Origin: Anaerolineae bacterium
GTDB lineage: Bacteria > Chloroflexota > Anaerolineae > Aggregatilineales > Phototrophicaceae
DNA: 64,000 nt
Direction: 5' to 3'
Assembly (NCBI GenBank): GCA_034420985.1
Contig: DAOUKU010000065.1
Location: 99,326-163,325, forward strand
A program made the translations under genes and the position numbers. Each line of letters opens with the position of its first letter. Positions within the stretch are counted from its first letter, which is position 1. This document shows positions 529-51,912 of the stretch, piece after piece. The notes under the pieces were generated by a model. It ran no database searches. It was given only the letters and a program-made list of their open reading frames with translations, and was not told where the DNA came from.

Positions 529-924
529 CTAACGCGCTTGTCGCTGCCAGATCATGCGTGCCGCCAGCAGAATCCCCGCGACATTGGCGCCCAGGTCTAG
601 CCAGGAGAAATGGCGATCGGGCGTGAAGCTCTGCGCCAGTTCTGTGCAGCCGCCCAGCGCCAGCGAGATGATGACAGCCGTCAATACACTGTGATGCGTT
701 CTCATCTTTGGCGACAGCGCCCAGTTCCAAATGCCGCATGTCACTGCAAACGCGACCAGGTGCACGGCGCTGAATGCCAACTCGCGCGCCAGGGTGTTGT
801 CGCCATCGGGGATGCCCAAATCCAGCACGGGATCCACTTCCGGTTGCAACAGCAGCAGACAAAGCAGCGCCGTCCAAGCCAGCGCCAGACAGCCGCGCAG
901 CAATAGCGACAGCCAACTAGCCAT
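529..924 (-). CDS. VanZ-like membrane protein
   Basis: 131 aa with about 4 hydrophobic segments and a VanZ-type C-terminal motif (CTELAQSFTPDRHFSWLDLGANVAG). Its start overlaps the upstream rdhA-like stop by 8 nt. Confidence 0.7.
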   Translation of the reverse strand: MASWLSLLLRGCLALAWTALLCLLLLQPEVDPVLDLGIPDGDNTLARELAFSAVHLVAFAVTCGIWNWALSPKMRTHHSVLTAVIISLALGGCTELAQSFTPDRHFSWLDLGANVAGILLAARMIWQRQAR

Positions 925-2236
925 CTGCGATCCGCCGCCACCACCAGCCAGCGGTTTTGCGCCCGCCGTATTTCAATTTCTCATCCAGCCACAGCGCCAA
1001 CCGCCGCCAGCGATTGCTCAGCATCCAGCGCAGCAGCCGATTAAAAGGCTTGGAGAAATCTTTGTTGTAGGGGCAAACGCGGATGCAAATCGAACAATCT
1101 GTGCCCTGATTCGCCCAAAACTGGAAGCAACGCCTGGCGTCAATCGTCCATTTGCGCACGCCTCTCAGGTGAGAGATCTCGTCGGGCGTTTTGTATTTTG
1201 GCGCGTCAAAGGGGATCGCCTTGACTGGGCAACCCGCGCTGCATTTCTGGCAGATATTGCAGGTTTCCGTAACGCCGAAGTCGATGGGCTGGTCGGCGAC
1301 CAGCGGCAAATCTGTGAAGACCTTGGCGATGCGCACGCGCGGTCCAAATTGCGGCGTGATCAACAGGCCGTGGCGGCCATATTGCCCCAAGCCGGCTTGT
1401 ATCGCCAGCGGGATGGACAGCGCTGTGTCGTTGAGGCTGGCGATAGCGCGGTAGCCCAGATTGCGGATGTATTGTGCCAAGGAAAGCGCGCCGATGATGT
1501 CGCGGCTGTAGCCTTGACCGGTGGCTGCGCCGCTCAAAGCCGACGGCACGGTGCGAATCGTCTCGTGATCCATCTCGTTGACGATGATGACCACATGCGT
1601 CAAATCGTCGGGCAAGTCTATGGGCTTGTCGCGCAGCTGTTGGCGGCTATAGTTATGCGTGTAAACCCAGCGCTCGTCAAAATCGCAGATGCCCACTTCG
1701 TCGCAGCCCAGGAATTTGGCAGCGCGCTTGAGTTCGGCGCTGTGCTGCTCGGGCGCCGCCTCCAGCTTGCGCGTGGCGCCTTCGCGGAACATGGTGTAGC
1801 TGTCCAGGAAGCCTTCCTTGCGGTCGTCGGACATTTCCAGCAGGTCGGCGGTGAAATCAGCGATATACCAAGCGGCGTTGCGCAGGGCGTAATCGCGATG
1901 CTGGAAGCCCTCGACTTTGCGGAATTGCGCCAGGTCGGTGAAATAGGATTCGAAGAATCTGCGCGCCCGGTCGCTGCGCACCCCCTCGTCCCAGACCGCG
2001 CGGTTGAACATGTCGTATTTCTGGTTGAAACGCTCGAACTCGTCCGTTACCTGGAAACCGGTCAAGCTGTCGACGGGCTTCTTGCAGCTGCAGGACTGGC
2101 AGCCGCATGCACCGCGTCCATTTGTCGCTGCGGAGATTGTGGCGGGCTTTTGCGCTTCCATAGTGTCTATATCGTAATCGATAGACGCAGACCGCGCCAT
2201 GATTTCGTCGGCAAGGCTCGCGGCAGCGCGTGGCAT
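917..2236 (-). CDS. Reductive dehalogenase (RdhA) family protein, no TAT signal
   Basis: Two ferredoxin-type Cys motifs (CNICQKCSAGCP and CFQFWANQGTDCSICIRVCP). RdhA-like core (VIIVNEMDHE, GLGQYGRHGLLITPQFGPRVRIAKVFTDLPL). No RRxFLK twin-arginine motif at the N-terminus. Confidence 0.8.
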   Translation of the reverse strand: MPRAAASLADEIMARSASIDYDIDTMEAQKPATISAATNGRGACGCQSCSCKKPVDSLTGFQVTDEFERFNQKYDMFNRAVWDEGVRSDRARRFFESYFTDLAQFRKVEGFQHRDYALRNAAWYIADFTADLLEMSDDRKEGFLDSYTMFREGATRKLEAAPEQHSAELKRAAKFLGCDEVGICDFDERWVYTHNYSRQQLRDKPIDLPDDLTHVVIIVNEMDHETIRTVPSALSGAATGQGYSRDIIGALSLAQYIRNLGYRAIASLNDTALSIPLAIQAGLGQYGRHGLLITPQFGPRVRIAKVFTDLPLVADQPIDFGVTETCNICQKCSAGCPVKAIPFDAPKYKTPDEISHLRGVRKWTIDARRCFQFWANQGTDCSICIRVCPYNKDFSKPFNRLLRWMLSNRWRRLALWLDEKLKYGGRKTAGWWWRRIADG

Positions 2237-2261
2237 GGCTATATATACGATGCAGCGCCGG

Positions 2262-3377
2262 TCAGCGGTTCAGCGCCGTTGTGCTGGATTCCTGCCAACT
2301 CACCGTGACTTCCTGCCCGGTTATGAAGCCGGAATCGGGCTGTTCATCGACATTCTGCAGGCGAGCCACCAGCTCAACTGTCTCGCCAATCCGCAGTGTG
2401 TAACGCGTGTCCGTGCCGATGTACTGACTATCGACCAGGGTTGCTGTCATGGTAGTCGTCATTGGCGGGGCGGGTTTGCCGTCGGGGGGCAGAATGGCAA
2501 TGCGCTCGGGACGGATGGTGACCAGCACTGCGCCATCGCCCTCGGTCAACGACGCTGCCAGTTGCACGCGGATAACCTGATCGTTCATCAGCCTGACTAG
2601 CCCGTAGCCGCCGGGTTCGCGCTCCAGCAGCATGCCGTCTATGAAGTTGGTCTCGCCAATGAAATCGGCGACGAAGTGACTGTCTGGGCGCTCGTAGATC
2701 TCTTTGGGCGTACCGACCTGCAGCATCTCGCCATTGTTCATCACAGCGATGCGGTCAGCCATGGTAATGGCTTCTTCCTGGTCATGCGTCACATAGATAA
2801 AGGTGATGCCCACATCGCGTTGCAGGGCTTTCAGTTCGACCTGCATATTCTTGCGCAGCTTGAGATCCAGCGCGCCCAGCGGCTCATCCAACAGCAGGAC
2901 AGCCGGCTGTTTGACCAGCGCCCGCGCCAGCGCCACCCGCTGCTGCTGTCCGCCGGATAGCTGATGCGGCTTGCGTTTGCCCACGCCCGGCAACCGCACC
3001 AACTCCAGCGCATCCAGCGCTCGCTCCAGCGCCTCTTTTTTGGCGACGCCTTCCATCTGCAAGCCGAACATGATGTTCTGCTCGACGGTCAGATGGGGGA
3101 AGAGCGCGTAATCCTGGAAGACGGTGTTGACGGGGCGATGGTAAGCCGGGATGCCCTCCATCGCCCGCCCGCGGATCAGCACGCGCCCGGCCGTCGGCTG
3201 TTCAAAACCGGCGATCAGGCGCAGCGTGGTCGTCTTCCCGCAGCCGCTGGGACCCAGCAGCGCGAAGAATTCGCCGTCGGCAATCTGCACGCTGACATGA
3301 TCCACCGCCCGCACGCGACCCCCGCCCGATTCAAAATCTTTGACGATGTCGATGAGTTCGACATCAAAGCTGGACAT
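2262..3377 (-). CDS. potA: Spermidine/putrescine ABC transporter ATP-binding protein
   Basis: Walker A GPSGCGKTT, signature LSGGQQQRVALARA, Walker B LLLDEP, and a PotA-like LGALDLKLRKNMQVELK...VTHDQEEA block. Confidence 0.9.
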   Translation of the reverse strand: MSSFDVELIDIVKDFESGGGRVRAVDHVSVQIADGEFFALLGPSGCGKTTTLRLIAGFEQPTAGRVLIRGRAMEGIPAYHRPVNTVFQDYALFPHLTVEQNIMFGLQMEGVAKKEALERALDALELVRLPGVGKRKPHQLSGGQQQRVALARALVKQPAVLLLDEPLGALDLKLRKNMQVELKALQRDVGITFIYVTHDQEEAITMADRIAVMNNGEMLQVGTPKEIYERPDSHFVADFIGETNFIDGMLLEREPGGYGLVRLMNDQVIRVQLAASLTEGDGAVLVTIRPERIAILPPDGKPAPPMTTTMTATLVDSQYIGTDTRYTLRIGETVELVARLQNVDEQPDSGFITGQEVTVSWQESSTTALNR

Positions 3378-21095: not shown

Positions 21096-21893
21096 TTATA
21101 TCTTGCCCATCTCCGCGCGCACAGTATCCAGCAGGTTTTCCGCGCGGATCTGCGCCAGGGTATAGCAGGGTCCGCCTAGTTGGTCGGCCAGACGCTGCGC
21201 CAAGCCCTGGTCGAAAGCCACATGCTCCATATTGATGGTCACGGTGCGGATGTCGGCTTCGTGAATCTTGCGCGCGATGGAATGCGCCTCGTCTTGCGGC
21301 GACACGCTATCGCTAATCGACACATTGCCGGCGCCGTCCGTCAGCAGGATCATCATCGGCATGACATCCGGGTTCAGGCTCTTCTCGCGCTGGACGGCTT
21401 CGTAGGTCATCAGCAAGCCCGCCGAAAGCGGGGTCTTGCCGCCAACGGGGATATCGGCCATGGCTTGCTTGGCCAGCACCACTGAGTTGGTCGGCGGCAG
21501 CACCAGCGAAGCGCGGTCTTTCTGGAAGACCACCAGCCCAACCCGGTCGCGGCGCTGGTAGGCATCCGTTAGCAGCGACATGATGGCGCCCTTGGTGGCT
21601 TGCATGCGCTCGGAGACCGCCATGCTCCAGGAGGCGTCGACCGTGAACATGATAAGGTTGGCGGCTTTGCGGACGCGCACTTTCTCTTGCAGGTCGCTCT
21701 TGCGCAGCGCGTAAGCCATGCCGGTTTCTTGCTTTTGCTCGGCGCGCTCGACTTGCATCGGGGCAGCGGCGCGCAGCGTGGCGTCAAAGGCGATGTCGCG
21801 GGGTTTCTCGCCGGCTTGCTTGGCGCGCACATAGCGCCCGCGCTTGCGATCCGTGCGCGTGGTGGAACGCCGTCCCGATTGACGCCGCGTCAT
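21096..21893 (-). CDS. chlD: VWA-domain protein, ChlD/BchD C-terminal-type (frame open upstream to 22070)
   Basis: MIDAS motif in LIMFTVDASWSMA, and LLTDGAGN. The same frame stays open with no ATG/GTG/TTG from 21894 up to the A9 run at 22064..22072. Confidence 0.8.
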   Translation of the reverse strand: MTRRQSGRRSTTRTDRKRGRYVRAKQAGEKPRDIAFDATLRAAAPMQVERAEQKQETGMAYALRKSDLQEKVRVRKAANLIMFTVDASWSMAVSERMQATKGAIMSLLTDAYQRRDRVGLVVFQKDRASLVLPPTNSVVLAKQAMADIPVGGKTPLSAGLLMTYEAVQREKSLNPDVMPMMILLTDGAGNVSISDSVSPQDEAHSIARKIHEADIRTVTINMEHVAFDQGLAQRLADQLGGPCYTLAQIRAENLLDTVRAEMGKI

Positions 21894-22051
21894 GCGATCC
21901 AGTTGCGTGTTTAGCTTGCGCGTCTCGAACTCGGCGCGGGAGTCGACTTGCTGCCCGCCTTCCCACCAGCGCGCGTCGGAAGTGGGGAAGACATCTTGCG
22001 GCGCGGCTTCCGCCTGGCTGAGCTCCTGTTCGGTCTGCTCGCCCTCGCCGC

Positions 22052-23173
22052 TTACCGACTCACTTTTTTTTTAGACTGCGATGCCTGTTCGTCGCTGTTT
22101 TCGCTGAATTCGCCGGCTTCTTCACCTTCGCCAAGTTCTTGGCGTTTTTCGTCCACGGCGGATTCGATTGCGTTGAGGTCGGCCTGGGCGTCACTGAAGG
22201 GTCCGCGCTTGAGGCGGTGCGGGATGGTCAGGCGGATGGCCACCGTGATATCGCGGTCGTTGATGGCGGTTCTGCCTTCGTAGGCCGCATGGGCGCGCGC
22301 CGCTTTGAGGATTACCAGGTCGGCGCGGTGACCGTCAATGCGCAGGTCGCTGGTGATGCTGGCGATGACGCGCAGGTCGTAAGTCGTATGCGTAACTTGG
22401 TCGATGATCTCGCGGGCGGCGGCAATGCGATCCGACAACTGCTGATCAACTGGCTGCCACTCCGTTTTGAAGTCCACAGGATCGTTCTCGTAGGCGATAT
22501 GTCGCTCCAGGATTTCGATGCGCTCGCGGGCTTCCTTGATGCCGGTGACATCCACGGACAGCGCAAACCGGTCCAACAGTTGCGGACGCAGGTCGCCTTC
22601 TTCCGGATTCATGGTACCGACCAGGATGAAGCGCGCCGGGTGGCTGAAACTGATGCCCTCGCGCTCGACGATGTTGACGCCCATAGCCGCGCTGTCCAAC
22701 AGCAGGTCGACAATATGGTCGTCCAGCAGGTTGATTTCATCGACATAGAGGATGCCGCGGTTGGCGTTGGCCAGCACGCCCGTGTCAAAATGTCGCTCGC
22801 CCAACTGGATGGCTTTCTCGATATCCAGGGTGCCGACAACGCGGTCTTCGGTGGCGCTGACGGGCAAGTCGACGAAGCTGATTCGGCGGCTCTTGCTGGG
22901 AATCTCGTCGCACTCGGCGTACTTTTGGCGGGCGAAATCCGACCAGCTTTCTGGGCGGGCGGGGTCATCATTGAAGGGCGAGTCGGCAATGACCTGGATT
23001 TGCGGCAGCAGAGCAGCCAGGGCGCGCGCTGCTGTGGATTTGCCGGTCCCGCGCTCGCCACGAATCAGCACGCCGCCTATACGCATGTCAATGGCGTTCA
23101 AAATCAACGCCAGTTTCATCATGTCTTGCCCTACGATGGCGGTGAAGGGGTAAACAGGCGGTCGATTGCTCAT
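22052..23173 (-). CDS. chlI: Magnesium/cobalt chelatase AAA+ subunit, ChlI/BchI family
   Basis: VYPFTAIVGQDMMKLALILNAI...GVLIRGERGTGKST (Walker A), ILYVDEINLL (Walker B), acidic C-terminal tail. The ORF ends KKKVSR-stop just after the A9 run. Confidence 0.9.
   Translation of the reverse strand: MSNRPPVYPFTAIVGQDMMKLALILNAIDMRIGGVLIRGERGTGKSTAARALAALLPQIQVIADSPFNDDPARPESWSDFARQKYAECDEIPSKSRRISFVDLPVSATEDRVVGTLDIEKAIQLGERHFDTGVLANANRGILYVDEINLLDDHIVDLLLDSAAMGVNIVEREGISFSHPARFILVGTMNPEEGDLRPQLLDRFALSVDVTGIKEARERIEILERHIAYENDPVDFKTEWQPVDQQLSDRIAAAREIIDQVTHTTYDLRVIASITSDLRIDGHRADLVILKAARAHAAYEGRTAINDRDITVAIRLTIPHRLKRGPFSDAQADLNAIESAVDEKRQELGEGEEAGEFSENSDEQASQSKKKVSR
22064..22072 (-). promoter_or_regulatory. 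A9 homopolymer: candidate -1 ribosomal frameshift or transcriptional slippage site
   Basis: The coding strand reads tct aaa aaa aaa gtg agt cgg taa. The -1 frame has a TAA immediately 5' of the run and is then open into the VWA ORF. Confidence 0.5.
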
Positions 23174-23225
23174 GACGATTCCGTTTTTGCCTCGTTGCCT
23201 TACATTGAAACGGCGATTATAAGGG

Positions 23226-23254
23226 AGGGCGCTGGAGCTGACAATTGTGAGCTT
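23226..23254 (-). promoter_or_regulatory. Candidate sigma-70 promoter for the chlI/chlD locus (TTGTCA-17 nt-TATAAT)
   Basis: On the minus strand, TTGTCA at 23254..23249 and TATAAT at 23231..23226 with a 17-nt spacer, about 50 nt upstream of the chlI ATG. Confidence 0.5.
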
Positions 23255-42851: not shown

Positions 42852-45800
42852 TTGAAACACTATTATAATGTGAAGAATTATGCTCGCACGCCCGAGATCC
42901 AGGACCTGCCCTCGCTGATCGACATCCAGCTCAAGTCCTTCGATCACTTCCTGCGCGGCGGCAAGCTGCTGGAGCTCTTCGACGAGATCAACCCCATCAC
43001 CAGCTTCAACGGCAACCTGTCGCTCTACTTCCCCGGCAATGACCCGCAAGCGCAAGAGTTTGGGCTCGAGTTCCGCCTGGACGACCCGAAGTACGACGAA
43101 GACCAGTGCATCGAACGCGATATGTCCTACGCAGCCTCGCTGCACGCTAAAGTCGCCCTGGTCAATCACGAACAGGCGGATGAATTCATCGTGCAGGAGA
43201 TCTTCCTGGGCGAGTTCCCGCTGATGACCGAAAAGGGCACCTTCATCATCAATGGCACCGAGCGAGTCGTCGTCAGCCAGTTGATCCGCTCGCCTGGCGT
43301 CTACTTTGACGGCGAAGAAGAGCGCACTACTGGTCGCTATCTGGCGACTTGCAAGCTGATCCCCGATCGCGGCGCCTGGATGGAGTTCGAGACGCGCAAA
43401 ACCGACTACATCACCTTTAAGTTCAACCGCAAGCGCACCATCCCCGTGACTATCCTGCTGCGGGCATTGGCTGCGGCGGAAGATGGCATGCCCGCCTCGC
43501 GCTCGCCCATCAAAACCGGCGAAGATGACGAAATCCTGGCGCTCTTCAAAGATGTCGATACCGACGAAGCGCATCGCTACATTGAAACCTGCCTCAAACA
43601 AGAACCCGTCTGGGACTTGAAAAAGAAGCAGACGATTGGCGAAGCGGCGCTGATCGAATTCTTCCGCCGCATCCGCCCCGGTGACCCGCCCACGCTGGAC
43701 AATGCCCGCAGCTTCCTGGAGGAGCAGCTCTTCGACAAGCGGCGTTACGACCTGGAGCGCGTCGGGCGCTACAAGCTGAACCGGCGGCTGGGTTTGGAAG
43801 ACACTGTCCCGCGCGAGCATCGCACCTTGACCAAGCATGACATCCTTGAGTTGGTGCGGCACATGGTGGAAATCAACAACCACGCCGACCCGGCGCGCTT
43901 CTTCGACGATATCGATCATCTGGGCAGCCGCCGCGTCAAAACCGTTGGCGAGCTAATCGGCAACAAATTGCGCGTCGGCCTACGGCGCATGGAACGCGTC
44001 GTCCGCGAACGGATGTCCATCCGGGAAGCTGATCAACTGGCGCCCGTGTCGCTAATCAACATCCGCCCGATTGTCGCGGCTGTGCGCGAGTTCTTCGGCT
44101 CGTCGCAGCTTTCGCAATTCATGGAACAGACCAACCCGCTATCGGAGCTGACGCACAAGCGTACGCTGTCGGCGCTGGGTCCCGGTGGCTTGCGGCGCGA
44201 GCGCGCCGGCTTTGATGTGCGCGATGTGCACAGCAGCCACTACGGGCGCATCTGTCCGATCGAAACGCCGGAAGGACCGAATATCGGCTTGATAGGACGC
44301 CTGGCCAGCTACGCGCGTGTCAACGAGCTCGGCTTCATCGAGACCCCCTATCGCAAGGTGATTCACAGCCTGCCGCTGGATGACGAGCGCTTGCTGGGGC
44401 GCGTCCTCTACGATGATGTGGAAGCCAGCCTGTCCCTGCCCAAGGGCGCGTTGATCACCGAGGATATCCTCGCCTTGCTGCGCTATCACGGCCTCAGCCA
44501 GGTCGCGGTGCATGCGCGGGGCGAGCAGGAAGCCGTCCGTGAGTTGGCTGTTGACGAATCGCTGGTGGGCTTGCGCGTTGGCGCAGACATCCGTGTGGGC
44601 GTTGTGCGCAGCCAGTTGACATCGCTGATTGACGCTGTGCGCGACCAACTGGAAAGCCGCGCCTTGAATGAGAATCGTGAAGAATTCGACGCGCTTTACG
44701 GCGAGTTGACTGGCGCAATCATCAGCGCCGCGGATCAACTCTGGGAGAATCGCGACCGCCTGACCCCGCAGCATCTGCATCACTTCGACGAAGTGGTCGG
44801 TCCGCGCGGGGCGGAACTGGAAGGCATTGTCTCCACCTATCTGAACGCGCGCGCCGAACTGCGCAGCGCCATTGACTCGCTGACTGCCGCGCTAGACAAG
44901 CCGTCCAGCCGCCTGGTGGATGTGCCCAAGCGCCTTGACCAACTCTATGACGAAGCTGCCAAATTTGCTGACAAGGTCGCGGACTTCACGCGCATGGCCG
45001 AAAAAGCGCTGAGCGGCGAGCCGCTCACGCCCCGCGAAGTCAACCGCACCATGAAATCCGCCTACAACTGTATCCGTCTCTTCCATGAGAAGATGTCGCG
45101 CGCTGATGAAGCCATTGAACGCGCCAGCAAGCCACTGGACGACTTGCTGAGATCCGATGTCATCACCGAGAGCCGCATGCTCGCGGAAAAGGGCGCCATT
45201 GTCGACGCGGACTTGCTCGAGGCGCTGGCTGAACATGGCATTGTCCAGGCGCCGGTGCTTGTGCTCAGCGATGATGGCGTCTCGGAAGACCTGCCCGTCA
45301 GCGACGCCTTGCTCGGGCGTGTGCTGCATGAACCTGTCGAAAGCGAAACCCTGGTGCTGGACGAGGGTGAGTTGATTGATGAAAGCGCGCTGGAAAAACT
45401 GCGGCTGGCAGGCTTCAGCGAAGCGCCGGTCGCGCCCTTTGCCTCGCGCGAGATCAGCTATCTGTCGGCGGATCAGGAAGACGAATTCACCATCGCGCAA
45501 GCCAACGCCGTGCTGGACGAACGCGACCAGTTTGTATCCAGGCGCGTGTCGGCGCGTCTCAATCAGCAGTTCATGTCGGTGACGCCGCAGCGCATCGAAT
45601 ACATGGATGTCGCTCCGCGCCAGATCGTCGGCATTAGCGCGGCGCTCATCCCCTTCCTGTCGCATGACGCTGCCAACCGCGCCTTGATGGGCTCCAACAT
45701 GCAGCGCCAGGCTGTCCCGCTGATCGCGCCGGATGTCTCGGTGGTCAGCACCGGCATGGAGCGCCAAGCCGCCTCTAGCAGCGGGCAAGTGCTGGTCTCG

Positions 45801-47735
45801 GAAGTGGCCGGCGAGGTCATCAGCGTGCAGGGGCACCGCGTCATTGTGCGCACGGAGTCTGGCAAGGAGGAAGAGTACACGTTGCGTAAGTACGAGCGCT
45901 CCAATCAGTCGACTTGTATCGACCAGCGACCGCAAGTGCGAAAAGGCGATACCATCCAGCCCGGCGACATCATTGCCGACAGCTCCTCGACTTACAACGG
46001 GCATCTGGCGCTGGGGCAGGATGTCTTGACCTGCTTCTTGTCCTGGGATGGCGGCAACTACGAAGATGCCTTGCTGGTCAGCGAAGATTTGCTGCGCAGT
46101 GACAAGTTCACCAGCATTCACATCGAGAAGTACGAGATCGAGGCTCGCGACACCAAGCTCGGCGCGGAAGAAATCACCTACGACATCCCCAATGTCGGCG
46201 AGGAAGCGCTGAAAGACCTCGACCAGGACGGCATCGTGCGTATCGGCGCGGAAGTGGGACCCAACGACATCCTGGTGGGCAAGATCACGCCCAAGGGTGA
46301 AAAAGAACTCTCGCCGGAAGAGAAACTGTTGCGCGCCATCTTTGGCGAACACGCGCGCGAAGTGAAAGACTCGTCATTGCGCCTGCCGCATGGCGATCGC
46401 GGCAAAGTGATCGATGTCAAGGTCTTTAACCGCGATGAGCACCCGGACTTGCCAGCTGGCGTCGAAAAGATGGTGCGCGTTAGTGTGGCGCAGCGCCGCA
46501 AGTTGACCGTCGGCGACAAAATGGCCGGGCGTCACGGCAACAAAGGCGTCATCTCCAAAATCGTTACCGTCGAGGATATGCCCTATATTGACGGCGGCAT
46601 CCCCTGCGAAATCATTCTCAACCCACTGGGCGTGCCGAGCCGCATGAACATCGGGCAGATCCTGGAGCTGCACCTGGGTTGGGCGGCGGATCGTCTGGGA
46701 TTCCGCGCTATCACGCCGGTATTTGACGGCGTCAACGAACTGGAAATCCAGGCGGAGCTGGGCAGAGCCTGGCTGATCGACTGGGCATGGAAACTGACGA
46801 CCGCGCGCGCCTGGGAAAATCAGAAGCGACTGGCTGCCAGCGCTGGCATGAGCGCCGAAGACTTTGACGACGACATGCATGTCATCTGCGCCTACCTGGT
46901 GGATAGCGTCGGCGCGTCGGGGCGCTACGACAACGAGAAGATCATCCTGGAACGCCAGGCAACTTATGTGCGGCGCGTGGCTGTCAGCGAGATCCTGCGC
47001 GAACATGGCTTTGACCCGGACGAGATCATGATCTATGACAATCACGGTTTGTCGACCCAAACGCGCGACCACTGCGATGCCAACGCGCTGGATGTCTCTC
47101 TCCGTCTGTGGATTCAGACAAATGCACCCGAACCCATCGAACTGGATGCGGATCTGAGCGCGCGCGAGCTTTTTGAAGTTGCTGACCGCGTTATGTTCGC
47201 CACCAACGAACCCGTGCCGCATTATGGCAAAATGACCCTCTACGACGGGCGCACCGGCGAGCCATTCGACCGTCCTGTGGCGGTTGGCTATGTGCATATG
47301 CTGAAACTGGCGCATCTGGTCGAAGACAAGGCGCATGCCCGCTCGACTGGTCCCTACAGCCTGGTCACGCAGCAGCCCCTGGGCGGCAAGGCGCAATTTG
47401 GCGGGCAGCGCTTCGGCGAGATGGAAGTCTGGGCGCTGGAGGCTTATGGCGCGGCGCATATCCTGCAGGAGATGCTGACGGTCAAGTCGGACGATGTGCA
47501 GGGGCGTGTCAAGACCTACGAGAGCATCGTCAAGGGCGAACCAATTGAAGAGCCGGGCATCCCTACCAGCTTCCGTGTGCTGGTTAAGGAATTGCAGAGC
47601 TTGGGGCTGTCGGTCGAAGCCATCACCGGCACAGGCGATGTCATCCGCTTCGGCAAATATGATGAGCAGTACCGCAAGCCCCAACCGGAAACGGGGCTGC
47701 TGGGCTTGGGCGCTGCGCGTTCCGCCGAGTTCTAG
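42852..47735 (+). CDS. rpoB: DNA-directed RNA polymerase subunit beta, unusually long (1627 aa)
   Basis: Conserved blocks are present ([117 protein letters not shown]). TTG start 8 nt after AAGGAG. Confidence 0.95.
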
Positions 47736-49165: not shown

Positions 49166-49717
49166 TCAGCGCAGCTCAATTGAATGCAGTGAAGTTCGGT
49201 CGAATAAGTCATTGGCGTTACTGAACTTCCAGCAAAACAGTTCGCCAACTTGCTGCAAAGAATCTTCGCGCAGCCAATATCCGATTTCGAGAAAGCGAAA
49301 TGCATCAACATCTGTGGGCTGGGTCTGCCACTTTCGTGATTTGCTTGGGATGAGTTCTCTCCAGCGCTGGTCACGAGTGGAATCACTGCGGACGCCGTAC
49401 CATGCTTTTCCTGTAAGGGCTTGCCAAAGAAGGAGTCTTGGCTCACCGATTACAGCGTGATTCCGCATAATGTTGGACAAATGTATGGTTCGTCCCCACA
49501 CCCAGGCTTGCTCCAAAGTGTCAAAGCGCGGCTTGCCATTCTCGCGTTTCGTTATGACCGTCAGCGCGTGCCAAGCCATATCTAGCAGGTCGTCTAGCGC
49601 GCGGTCGAGTTCTTCGGCTTCGGGGCGGAACTCTTCGGCGCTAAGGGCGACTCGTCTGCCAGTGCGGATGCTGTTGCCGAGCGCGCAATCGCGGTCGCTC
49701 CAGACGAGGACGGGCAT
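49166..49717 (-). CDS. Hypothetical protein (183 aa), last gene of the low-GC cassette
   Basis: Its ATG at 49717 shares one nucleotide with the TAA of the upstream gene (TAATG). I recognise no domain. About 45-50% GC. Confidence 0.6.
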   Translation of the reverse strand: MPVLVWSDRDCALGNSIRTGRRVALSAEEFRPEAEELDRALDDLLDMAWHALTVITKRENGKPRFDTLEQAWVWGRTIHLSNIMRNHAVIGEPRLLLWQALTGKAWYGVRSDSTRDQRWRELIPSKSRKWQTQPTDVDAFRFLEIGYWLREDSLQQVGELFCWKFSNANDLFDRTSLHSIELR

Positions 49718-51912
49718 TAGGCAAACTCCTGCGAAAAGATGTCCAGCATGACTGCGACAGTTTCGCGCCATGTCTGGGCAAATTCAATTGGGGATTCCAT
49801 TGCTCCGTTGCCTAGTTTTTCCAGCCGGCGGCGATACGGTTCCCAATTGGGATCATCTGGGCTACCTATGCTATCGAGCAATTGGTCAAAGTTGCTGTCA
49901 CTGCCGTGTTCCTTCGGCCGCAGTGCCCATTCAAGCAAGCCGTTGGCGCTGATCTCGGCGATGAAGGCGTTCTTGCCTTGTAGAGGACTCCGCAGACGCT
50001 GTACATCTGGCAATGCTTTGCGCAGCGGGTAATCTCCTGGATAGGTTAGTTCAGAGAGTTCGATATTCAACTTCCACATCTCTTTCTGTTCGGATTCTTG
50101 CCGAATATCAAATGGCAAGTCGTTCTTCGCGCGGCCAGGATCGCGTTGAAAGTACACTGGCTTACTGTCATGTGCGATTCGGTCTACTTCTTCATTGACA
50201 AGCTCGGCGCGCACACGAAAGATGCCGCTCGACTCAGGCATCTTCAGGCTGGCTGCGTCTGTGACTGGCAAGTGCGATTCCTGTTGCGGATCCAGCAATT
50301 GGCGCTTCACAGTCAAGATGGATTGCGGGGTAGGGGTGTCGCCAGCCGGCGTGCCAGGCAGTACGACCGGCATTTCCCGCGCGAAGACTTCGTCGCAAAA
50401 TGTCGCGTTCAAGTAGACTGTGGCGGCATCGGGCAATCGATTACGCGCCTTGAATTCAATGTGCAAGACCTCGCCATGGTCAATGCGCTGCTTCTTTCCA
50501 TTATCGACATTCACGGCGTTGATAGACAAAGTGATCGGATTCTTGTCTGGTGGAGGGGGTGGCTCGGTCTCTACATAGACAGTCCGTGCCGCGCTTTTCA
50601 CCCGTTCGCCGCGGTGTATAACCACAGCTCGCAGCCGGAATTCACCGGGTACCGGACATTTGATTTGCCGGTCACCGTTGACTTTACCGCGCAGGATATG
50701 CCAGTCCCCAAGTTCAAATTGCTCTTGTATGCGGTCTTTGCTCCACTGCTTGCTGATGGCTGCTTCTTTTCTGAATATTTCGTCCGCGTTGCCAGCTTCA
50801 TCCACCCATTCAAGGATCAAGTCAGCGCTGCCCATGAATTCATCACCTGGTTCGCAGCCCACTTCGACATATACACTTCGGACCGACTGCCCCCAATTTA
50901 CCCGCGCGCTTTTCGGGTCTGGATAATCCAGGTCGAGGCGGAGATCCCAGATAAGCTGCCTGCCATCTGACTCACCTTTGCCTCGTCCAGGCTTGGGTTT
51001 GCGTCCATTTGGATTCAAAAAAGTCTCCAATAATCTCGCATGCGTGTCTTTTTCGCGCTGAGAGACCTGCTGCTGTGAAGTTGAGACAGCTTCCATCCAG
51101 CCCATGTCATGGCTGAAGTCGCGCACTCTTTCTGAAAGCAAATTGCGAATATTACTGATGATCTTCTTCTTGCGGTTGAAGCGATCGTGCTGCGGGTTTT
51201 CAATTTCATGGTGTCGCAGCGCGCTTTCGGTAAATTTGGCAAATTCGACATAGCCACGGAAGCCGGCGCGTTTCTCCGCCGGGATCAGATCTCCATACTC
51301 TTCTTTGGCTCCGTAGGTCTCAATCCACTGTCTGTGGCGCAGTAGCTGAATGCCAGACCATTCAGGTTCCTTCGAGATTTCGTCTTCGGGGATGGTATCG
51401 CTATACAGCAGGACTAAGCGGCGGATTTCGTGCTCATCATCCAATGGCAGGTTGCCCCAGACACACGCGCGGTCGCCATAGGGCATGTCTAGCCAGCTAC
51501 CCTCAGATGAAGGCTTGCTTCTTTCTCGAGGCAAAGACGACCACCAACTCGGTATAGCGATCTCCTCCGCTTCGCCATGCACATCAATGACGCGAATGCG
51601 TACTCTGTTAGTCTGGATAGCTCGCCACCAGCAGCGCTGCAACCAGCGAGAAAGCTCACCTCCTGGGCGCATCGTTGCAACCTGCTTAGCCGGGATAAAG
51701 GGCACAATAATTCGCGTGCCGATTTCGCTCAATGGTTTGATACCGAGAGGCACGGACAGACCGTCGTCCAAGCGGAACTGCTCACTGCGTATCCATTCTC
51801 GCGCCTCATCGTTAAACACAGGCGGCGTCATGACCTGGTCAATCGGCCGCGCAAAACGCATCCCTAAGCGATATTCGCCATCTTCCAGCAAGGTGTCATA
51901 GAGCATCAGCAT
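49717..51912 (-). CDS. Large uncharacterised protein (731 aa), probably the C-terminal continuation of the GHKL ATPase ORF upstream
   Basis: It overlaps the GHKL ORF end by 7 nt in a different frame. The N-terminus (MLMLYDTLLEDGEYRLGMRF) looks like the beta-strands expected after a GHKL G2 box. The C-terminal half is beta-rich. Confidence 0.7.
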   Translation of the reverse strand: MLMLYDTLLEDGEYRLGMRFARPIDQVMTPPVFNDEAREWIRSEQFRLDDGLSVPLGIKPLSEIGTRIIVPFIPAKQVATMRPGGELSRWLQRCWWRAIQTNRVRIRVIDVHGEAEEIAIPSWWSSLPRERSKPSSEGSWLDMPYGDRACVWGNLPLDDEHEIRRLVLLYSDTIPEDEISKEPEWSGIQLLRHRQWIETYGAKEEYGDLIPAEKRAGFRGYVEFAKFTESALRHHEIENPQHDRFNRKKKIISNIRNLLSERVRDFSHDMGWMEAVSTSQQQVSQREKDTHARLLETFLNPNGRKPKPGRGKGESDGRQLIWDLRLDLDYPDPKSARVNWGQSVRSVYVEVGCEPGDEFMGSADLILEWVDEAGNADEIFRKEAAISKQWSKDRIQEQFELGDWHILRGKVNGDRQIKCPVPGEFRLRAVVIHRGERVKSAARTVYVETEPPPPPDKNPITLSINAVNVDNGKKQRIDHGEVLHIEFKARNRLPDAATVYLNATFCDEVFAREMPVVLPGTPAGDTPTPQSILTVKRQLLDPQQESHLPVTDAASLKMPESSGIFRVRAELVNEEVDRIAHDSKPVYFQRDPGRAKNDLPFDIRQESEQKEMWKLNIELSELTYPGDYPLRKALPDVQRLRSPLQGKNAFIAEISANGLLEWALRPKEHGSDSNFDQLLDSIGSPDDPNWEPYRRRLEKLGNGAMESPIEFAQTWRETVAVMLDIFSQEFA

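Follow-up and report, generated by a model that had tools for sequence, protein, structure and literature searches.

A chlD-type locus of uncultured Anaerolineae split at an invariant A9 run: a probable case of recoding

Introduction

When an open reading frame (ORF) for a ChlI/BchI-type ATPase is followed on the same strand by one for a VWA-domain protein in the -1 frame, are these two genes, or a single gene that is decoded in two ways? The question is raised by a locus on the minus strand of contig DAOUKU010000065.1 (Anaerolineae bacterium, NCBI GenBank assembly GCA_034420985.1), within a stretch of 64,000 nucleotides (contig positions 99,326 to 163,325) that we call the window and whose own numbering is used throughout. 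The ATPase frame (ORF1) ends shortly after a run of nine adenines (A9), and a first-pass annotation made from the letters of the window had proposed this run as a recoding site that yields two chelatase subunits from one locus. We find that the two ORFs are very probably one chlD-type gene, giving a short and a long product.

Results

Layout of the locus

The elements of the locus, in the direction of transcription, are:

23216..23244, minus strand: promoter-like site TTGTCA-17-TATAAT (11/12 matches), about 43 nt upstream of the ORF1 start, a consensus match only
23173..22052, minus strand: ORF1, the short ChlI/BchI-type product, 373 aa by standard decoding from ATG 23173, ending in ...SQSKKKVSR and a stop
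22073..22071, minus strand: TAA of the -1 frame, made of T22073 and the first two A's of the run
22072..22064, minus strand: A9 slippery run, the proposed recoding site, read AAA AAA AAA in the ORF1 frame
21894..22070, minus strand: acidic linker, open in the -1 frame only and without start codon, KKSESVSGEGEQTEQELSQAEAAPQDVFPTSDARWWEGGQQVDSRAEFETRKLNTQLDR
22060..22062, minus strand: +1-frame TGA directly after the run (AAA AAA AAG TGA)
22054..22052, minus strand: 0-frame stop TAA, exactly six codons from the start of the run
21096..21893, minus strand: VWA part (basic segment and VWA domain), annotated elsewhere as a separate 265-aa 'VWA domain-containing protein'

Direct reading and translation of the minus strand reproduced most of what the first-pass annotation had described: the end of ORF1, its length and the A9 at 22064..22072 are as it gave them, and the stop of ORF1 falls three codons past the run. 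Reading in the -1 frame meets no stop between the TAA at 22073..22071 and the one at 21098..21096. That TAA had been placed correctly but described as lying immediately 5' of the run, which it in fact overlaps by two A's; since it closes the -1 frame upstream, entry into this frame must fall within the run itself. From the run to ATG 21893, SESVSG...QLDR takes up 57 codons (59 with the two AAA codons) and not 53 as first counted. It does lack ATG, GTG and TTG as claimed, and the earliest of these in the -1 frame 3' of the run is ATG 21893. The conceptual -1 fusion, put at about 690 aa, is exactly 692 aa long, with the junction ...SQSKKK/SESVSGEGEQ... and the predicted junction peptide KKKSESVSGEGEQ. 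A transcript short of one A would run into the TGA at 22060..22062 and would also yield a short ChlI-type product.

On the minus strand between the ORF1 stop and ATG 21893 we looked for promoter-like and terminator-like sites and found none. Together with the promoter-like site upstream of ORF1, this may be taken as weak evidence for a single unit. No Shine-Dalgarno-like sequence precedes ATG 21893 in the window sequence, and the 64 kb hold no second ChlI-like or VWA copy.

The split layout is conserved

We analysed the reading frames of homologous loci with tblastn in a scan of species-representative genomes (80 loci) and in a scan of metagenomes (52 further analysable loci). All 29 analysable species-representative loci with 69-96% identity, referred to below as group (a), are split by -1. 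Each of them has exactly A9 followed by G, with the run starting at codon position 1, and a 0-frame stop (TAA, TAG or TGA) six codons from the start of the run, the intervening codons being different. The -1 frame, which in most split orthologues opens 2 nt into the run, stays open through the VWA domain to its end, over a length of 322-327 codons; in the whole close clade the +1 frame meets a stop 3 codons from where the run starts. When the junctions of 30 species were aligned, the invariant block consisted of A9G and the T of the stop only (30/30), with flanks that are strongly diverged up to a -1-frame motif, PQxVF…WWEGG. In the window's genes 43% of Lys codons are AAA; the three AAA codons of the run are never AAG in any aligned species.

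The metagenome loci carry A9 in 42 cases, A7 in five, A10 in three, and A11 and A6 in one each; the six contigs with at least 90% overall match identity (L084-L089) all have A9 and are split. The run, the 0-frame stop and the open -1 linker, for which the first-pass annotation had looked to orthologues, are thus kept in 29/29 genomes and about 40 metagenome contigs, and the invariant A9 is found in more than 70 independent sequences in all. The alignments indicate that the A9 run is under selection and is neither chance nor error.

The mere presence of such a run would not have told us this. The A9 is the sole A/T homopolymer of at least 8 in the window, followed by one run of 7 and eleven of 6, and A8 matches reached or exceeded the window's count in 22 of 100 shuffles, so that an isolated A9 in 64 kb is not very unlikely by chance. 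What does exceed chance is that it sits exactly where the frames meet and does not vary in any of the orthologues examined. Gene order gave no functional clue: the neighbours (PfkB and an ABC transporter upstream; AAT, AlaDH and LPG synthase downstream) are kept only within the clade of at least 83% identity, and synteny is therefore uninformative on function.

Coding-type evolution of the linker

When the 58 codons that follow the run are read in the -1 frame, variable columns at codon positions 1, 2 and 3 number 16, 5 and 47 of 58. The 58 ORF1 codons before the run give 14, 7 and 51, a pattern like that of the linker, and these substitutions point to coding-type purifying selection on the linker in the -1 frame. 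The motif PQxVF...WWEGG is common to split genes and continuous ChlD-type homologues. In the close clade the first possible -1-frame start lies 22-25 codons downstream of WWEGG. In six more distant species none occurs within 90 codons, and most split species at greater distance, like two continuous homologues, have Leu or Ile at the position of Met-21893. Because the motif precedes any start, and start codons are missing or replaced, independent initiation is ruled out as the source of the conserved linker. Both the selection and the motif bear out the assignment of the acidic linker to a ChlD-type protein.

Domains and family membership of the two products

ORF1 has Pfam matches to Mg_chelatase and AAA_lid_2, and in a search of PDB it matched ChlI (8osf, E 3e-107), as well as 6l8d and BchI 1g8p, over the full AAA+ module. 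Its Walker A motif GERGTGKS (23059..23036), Walker B motif ILYVDE and LLDRF motif are intact. The VWA part matches Pfam VWA_2, carries the metal ion-dependent adhesion site (MIDAS) DASWS, of the form DxSxS, at 21638..21624, and matches the VWA (integrin-I) structure of BchD, 2x31_A, with E 3e-18. Read as a fusion, the locus therefore shows the features of the ChlI/ChlD superfamily: AAA+ module, acidic linker and VWA domain with MIDAS. The comparison of this fusion with hidden Markov models of ChlD/BchD, suggested at the outset, gave single uninterrupted matches to positions 1-640 of 641 of TIGR02442 'putative cobaltochelatase' (740.0 bits) and to positions 1-606 of 608 of TIGR02031 BchD-ChlD.

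In a protein search with the fusion, nearly all matches were continuous proteins of 665-700 aa from Chloroflexota, Anaerolineae among them, named 'magnesium chelatase subunit D family / putative cobaltochelatase'; they cover 99% of the query at 58-64% identity. The very proteins of ORF1 and ORF2 (ORF2 being the VWA part) fall in a 353-member cluster at 90% identity, which holds many 373-aa proteins (ending in …KKKVSR or …KKKVSL) and 265-aa proteins from independent deposits of metagenome-assembled genomes (MAGs), together with one fused member of 692 aa. The window lies on a scaffold of 443,914 bp in ENA ERZ23495175.

Sister lineages keep the run in a continuous gene

Other Anaerolineae-type MAGs with about 56-67% identity (group (b)) have a continuous gene with a run at the same linker site. 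This run is A9 in seven short-read assemblies (L004, L005, L007, L008, L011, L012 and L013), A10 in L010 and L033, and A7 in L009. It occurs in all three codon phases, and at nearly all loci both alternative frames close within 3-20 codons; the in-frame layout of L005 was confirmed by direct translation. Homologues with at most 55% identity (group (c): Dehalococcoidia, archaea and others) have a continuous gene without an A run. The exception is L033, from Leptospirales (about 43% identity), whose in-frame A10 makes it like group (b) by run while identity and cobN linkage make it like group (c). Fused protein hits with the motif WW[ED]GG (within P0002-P0120) have KK or KKK at the linker site in 109/109 cases. 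In the in-frame sister genes the arrangement would be the reverse one, similar to that of Thermus dnaX, with slippage yielding the short subunit.

Five metagenome loci (L132, L134, L137, L138 and L141) represent a sub-lineage with A7 only, in which the run always starts at codon position 3 and makes the heptamer A_AAA_AAG. Given this constant phase, slippage mechanisms may differ between lineages of the family.

RNA structure around the run

A consensus fold of the region downstream of the run (RNAalifold, 30 species) reached only -0.41 kcal/mol, with 3 trivial pairs and 0 covarying ones, and the single-sequence fold of the window downstream of the run had z = -0.51. Per-species z scores in the same 30 species, over 60 nt downstream and 45 nt upstream, likewise gave no conserved structure (mean -0.71, 4/30 below -2). 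No conserved Shine-Dalgarno-like element is visible upstream of the run in the 30-species junction alignment.

Discussion

Probably one gene with two products

The layout can be read directly from the DNA, its conservation from the orthologues and the coding nature of the linker from its substitutions. On this footing we consider it very probable that the locus is a single gene. Standard decoding would give the 373-aa ChlI-like AAA+ ATPase and, in a fraction of events, a -1 change within AAA AAA AAA would give the 692-aa ChlD-like protein, with the same AAA+ module followed by linker and VWA/MIDAS. A single transcript would then supply both I/D-type AAA+ partners, their ratio depending on how efficient slippage is, and by homology the two would assemble into an AAA+ motor complex of the I/D type. 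That the shift occurs at a useful rate we infer from published data on homologous chelatase cassettes, for which reporters in E. coli with 7, 9 and 11 A's showed 10%, 40% and 63% shifting (PMC3711429). We suppose the main route to be slippage of RNA polymerase on the 9-nt homopolymer, which would produce A10 mRNAs that are read normally, while ribosomal -1 tandem slippage at A_AAA_AAA probably contributes.

Several results weigh against this interpretation or limit it. In this organism the long product and the A10 transcripts are predictions. Whole-protein scores fall narrowly short of the equivalog cut-offs of all three models: the fusion stays below 779.45 for TIGR02442 with its 740.0 bits and below 499.55 for TIGR02031 BchD-ChlD (445.2), and ORF1 below 466.95 for TIGR02030 BchI-ChlI (406.5). 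By these scores the protein belongs to the family, yet it is no certified equivalog of ChlI, of ChlD or of the cobaltochelatase subunit that partners CobN. The chelatase role is unproven and rests on homology only, and the 64-kb window has no CobN-like or ChlH sequence. The proposal of two chelatase subunits from one locus is supported as regards the recoding layout, with the word chelatase being a label by homology. Ribosomal slippage, which we favour for the A7 relatives, may be the major route here too. Finally, two relatives in the close clade, L001 and L083, have A10 and an in-frame fusion.

These two relatives differ in quality. L001 (ENA ERZ21830300 ctg654804l) shares about 90% identity with the window along the chelatase gene, and its A10 reads through as …SKKKSES…. 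The gene has three +1 homopolymer insertions (9948, 10484 and 11384), two of which break conserved domains; the further insertions sit in C and G homopolymers. We distrust its A10 because the same gene carries these two further domain-breaking insertions: L001 looks like uncorrected long-read error, and its called proteins appear unreliable. The read-through protein P0001 (97% identical), which derives from L001, was rejected as proof of A10 on account of the two other insertions in the gene. L083 (JGI 3300046527, Ga0499340_206708), a 3.9-kb contig of 94% identity, has A10 at 1127-1136 in an intact in-frame gene for 692 aa; just 3' of the run it has a T-to-C change, synonymous when read in the fused frame. 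L083 may be a true in-frame variant of natural origin, which would mean that the length of the run varies at the DNA level. In such a variant an mRNA with one A less would recreate the short product of the window; either genotype would be tolerated, as expected if slippage makes mixed transcript lengths.

Alternative explanations

Could the A10 of such relatives be the true state of the window too? If so, the A9 would be an assembly or sequencing error in an ordinary continuous chlD, as homopolymer length is error-prone. We exclude such an error because the layout recurs across many assemblies, and we give it hardly any credence: the identical A9/-1 layout in the 29 species representatives and about 40 metagenome contigs comes with contig names (NODE_, k141_, chromosome-level OY/OZ) from which differing assemblers and platforms can be surmised, a 0-frame stop at a fixed distance would be meaningless if its frame were never read, and the A9 of the in-frame sister genes was assembled without trouble. 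The same two A10 sequences, with the fused sequence P0009 that resembles the split clade, could instead speak for phase variation at the DNA level, in which replication slippage, of which homopolymers are hot spots (PMC3711429), toggles between A9 (split) and A10 (fused) and switches the long product heritably on and off. This appears improbable to us. The close clade has A9 in 15 genome assemblies (the window included) and 6 metagenome contigs and A10 in two sequences, one of them the insertion-ridden L001, and toggling leaves unexplained a consensus without ChlD in 29 species that keep linker and VWA domain under purifying selection. A third view is that of gene callers and of NCBI, which annotate an 'ATP-binding protein' next to a 'VWA domain-containing protein': a pair of ordinary genes, each translated on its own, the second starting at ATG 21893, a codon present in the close clade, with an untranslated spacer between them. 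We find it very improbable, as the 58-codon 'spacer' has coding-type substitutions in the -1 frame and the PQxVF...WWEGG of continuous ChlD proteins, in all species the -1 frame reads on from the run without a stop, and the ATG is changed or has no counterpart within 90 codons in the distant species described above, quite apart from the missing Shine-Dalgarno-like sequence.

The remaining alternative accepts a single gene with two products and, as a sub-variant of that explanation, differs in mechanism alone. Tandem slippage of tRNA-Lys on A_AAA_AAA would occur on an unedited A9 mRNA, with negligible slippage of the polymerase. We regard purely ribosomal frameshifting as quite possible, though short of an even chance. 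The phase of the run fits X_XXY_YYZ in every split orthologue, the A7-only lineages always have A_AAA_AAG, and the chlD signal has been described as A_AAA_AAR ribosomal frameshifting (PMC5009743, PMC9227772). Conversely, no conserved stem-loop, pseudoknot or covariation was found downstream and no conserved Shine-Dalgarno-like element upstream; the run is fixed at 9 and not at 7, and in-frame sisters keep it in three phases. Reporter efficiency, moreover, grew with run length, as expected of polymerase slippage (PMC3711429). We favour RNA-polymerase slippage because conserved stimulators are lacking and the length is fixed at 9 where a ribosomal heptamer needs 7, because in-frame sisters keep the tract in any phase with stops near in both other frames, and because efficient slippage in vivo on 9 A or T is documented (PMC5009743). 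We infer from these sequences only a slight lean towards the transcriptional over the ribosomal route.

Relation to known systems

Frameshifting of chlD is already published, and the locus adds another case and no new mechanism. Antonov reportedly extended the work on frameshifted chlD genes (fs-chlD) in 2020. Earlier, -1 frameshifting in 'magnesium chelatase' (chlD) genes had been predicted and tested in 2013 (Antonov et al., PMC3711429); it was reviewed in 2016 (PMC5009743) and the work was extended in 2022 (Kuznetsov et al., PMC9227772). The first-pass annotation had mentioned such frameshifting correctly, as can be seen in PMC3711429 and PMC9227772. We place the locus among the published fs-chlD genes because their defining features are present, with the exception of a conserved stimulatory structure: downstream of a ChlI-like ORF lies one for a VWA protein in the -1 frame, the A-rich run at the junction is under purifying selection, annotation pipelines call two genes, there are fused homologues, and some carriers have neither cobN nor chlH. 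Cases from Chloroflexi have been reported before, in Herpetosiphon and in the Anaerolineae Brevefilum, Anaerolinea and Levilinea. The present lineage is a different, uncultured one, its nearest genome records being labelled as Aggregatilineales, Phototrophicaceae or Anaerolineae MAGs. Published sites have stimulatory structures, whereas no conserved downstream structure is found here; that of chlD is, however, described as 'not strongly conserved' (PMC5009743), and such a structure is hence no strict requirement. Going modestly beyond PMC3711429, PMC5009743 and PMC9227772 are the strict A9 over more than 70 sequences, the absence of a conserved stimulator and the same tract in in-frame sisters, whose A9 is not mentioned in any of the three.

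The dnaX gene, with its tau and gamma products, offers a second parallel: a single gene yields two AAA+ products by way of a poly-A tract, and these share their N-terminal ATPase but differ at the C-terminus. In Thermus thermophilus, where slippage is transcriptional, the length of the tract is equal: the Thermus dnaX site is a 9-nt homopolymer, given as 9 As in PMC3711429 and as 9 Ts in PMC5009743, in line with the A9 that the first-pass annotation gave for it. The layout of Thermus dnaX is mirrored by the in-frame sisters, and that of the split genes mirrors the 'reversed' dnaX of Chlorobi (PMC3711429, PMC5009743). The family is nevertheless unrelated and has another function; the long form needs the shift here, as it does in the reversed dnaX genes but not in E. 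coli or Thermus, and the Shine-Dalgarno-like and hairpin stimulators of E. coli dnaX (ribosomal -1, A_AAA_AAG) are not detected. With the canonical pairs BchI/BchD, ChlI/ChlD and CobS/CobT the locus shares AAA+, acidic linker and VWA with a DxSxS MIDAS. In those systems, however, I and D are separate genes, while the D-type product here would reuse an intact I module; scores are below the equivalog cut-offs, and cobN is adjacent only in distant fused homologues, not in this clade.

Function and the large chelatase subunit

The statement that the window has no large CobN/BchH subunit agrees with our search, which found no CobN-like sequence. Within ±4 kb of the Anaerolineae-type loci that bear the A run there is no CobN either. 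An Rfam search of the window gave no family match and hence no cobalamin riboswitch. An ORF of 1627 aa, which had come into view as a possible large subunit, was rejected as it is RpoB. In 22 distant homologues, all of them continuous and without a poly-A run except L033, a gene for the large subunit of CobN/Mg-chelatase directly adjoins the chlD-type gene. These cobN-adjacent loci include Dehalococcoidia, Methanoregulaceae, Actinomycetes and Armatimonadota, with the following examples in addition to 18 further loci:

L082, 84-3965: cobN-adjacent
L071, 321-3953: cobN-adjacent
L044, 1-2622: cobN-adjacent
L035, 1-3810: cobN-adjacent

Anaerolineae with fs-chlD have been described that lack the large subunit and also a B12 or chlorophyll pathway, the function being unknown (PMC9227772). 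We put forward, as a conjecture that is rather unlikely to hold in full, that the A9 is a frame-agnostic site of transcriptional slippage, with exactly nine A's in split and in-frame genes of the Anaerolineae-type clade, and that it determines the subunit ratio in a ChlI/ChlD-like AAA+-VWA complex free of CobN/ChlH, which would hence have a function other than the insertion of metal into tetrapyrroles.

Public pipelines split the locus in every deposit seen and so would miss a ChlD-type product of about 75 kDa and about 58 translated codons; recognising the recoding site would correct annotation across a clade of uncultured Chloroflexota. For a known recoding family, the more than 70 independent sequences with invariant A9 make a large and clean comparative set. 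They sharpen two questions of the literature, whether the shift is transcriptional or translational and what the I/D pair does where no large subunit is linked, and the locus offers a clean system for separating transcriptional from translational slippage.

Other observations

In three distant loci, L035 (4001-7042), L039 (4001-7050) and L046 (4001-7088), which belong to Methanoregulaceae, Armatimonadota and Pelotomaculum, the chlD-type match spans about 3.05 kb, compared with the usual 2 kb or so. The extra length implies an insertion of about 1 kb inside the gene, which is perhaps an intein or an additional domain.

Elsewhere in the window, the RpoB ORF (42852..47735, plus strand) is unusually long, with 1627 aa from a TTG start, and has large gaps between Pfam Rpb2 domains at residues ~490-865 and 1305-1517 that suggest lineage-specific insertions. 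In the 4 kb past rpoB, the list of ORFs of at least 180 aa has on the plus strand only two, of 374 and 290 aa, and no rpoC-sized ORF directly after it. Two long ORFs, one of 731 aa (49717..51912, minus strand) and one of 525 aa (731..2308, plus strand), have no Pfam match at E <= 1e-5.

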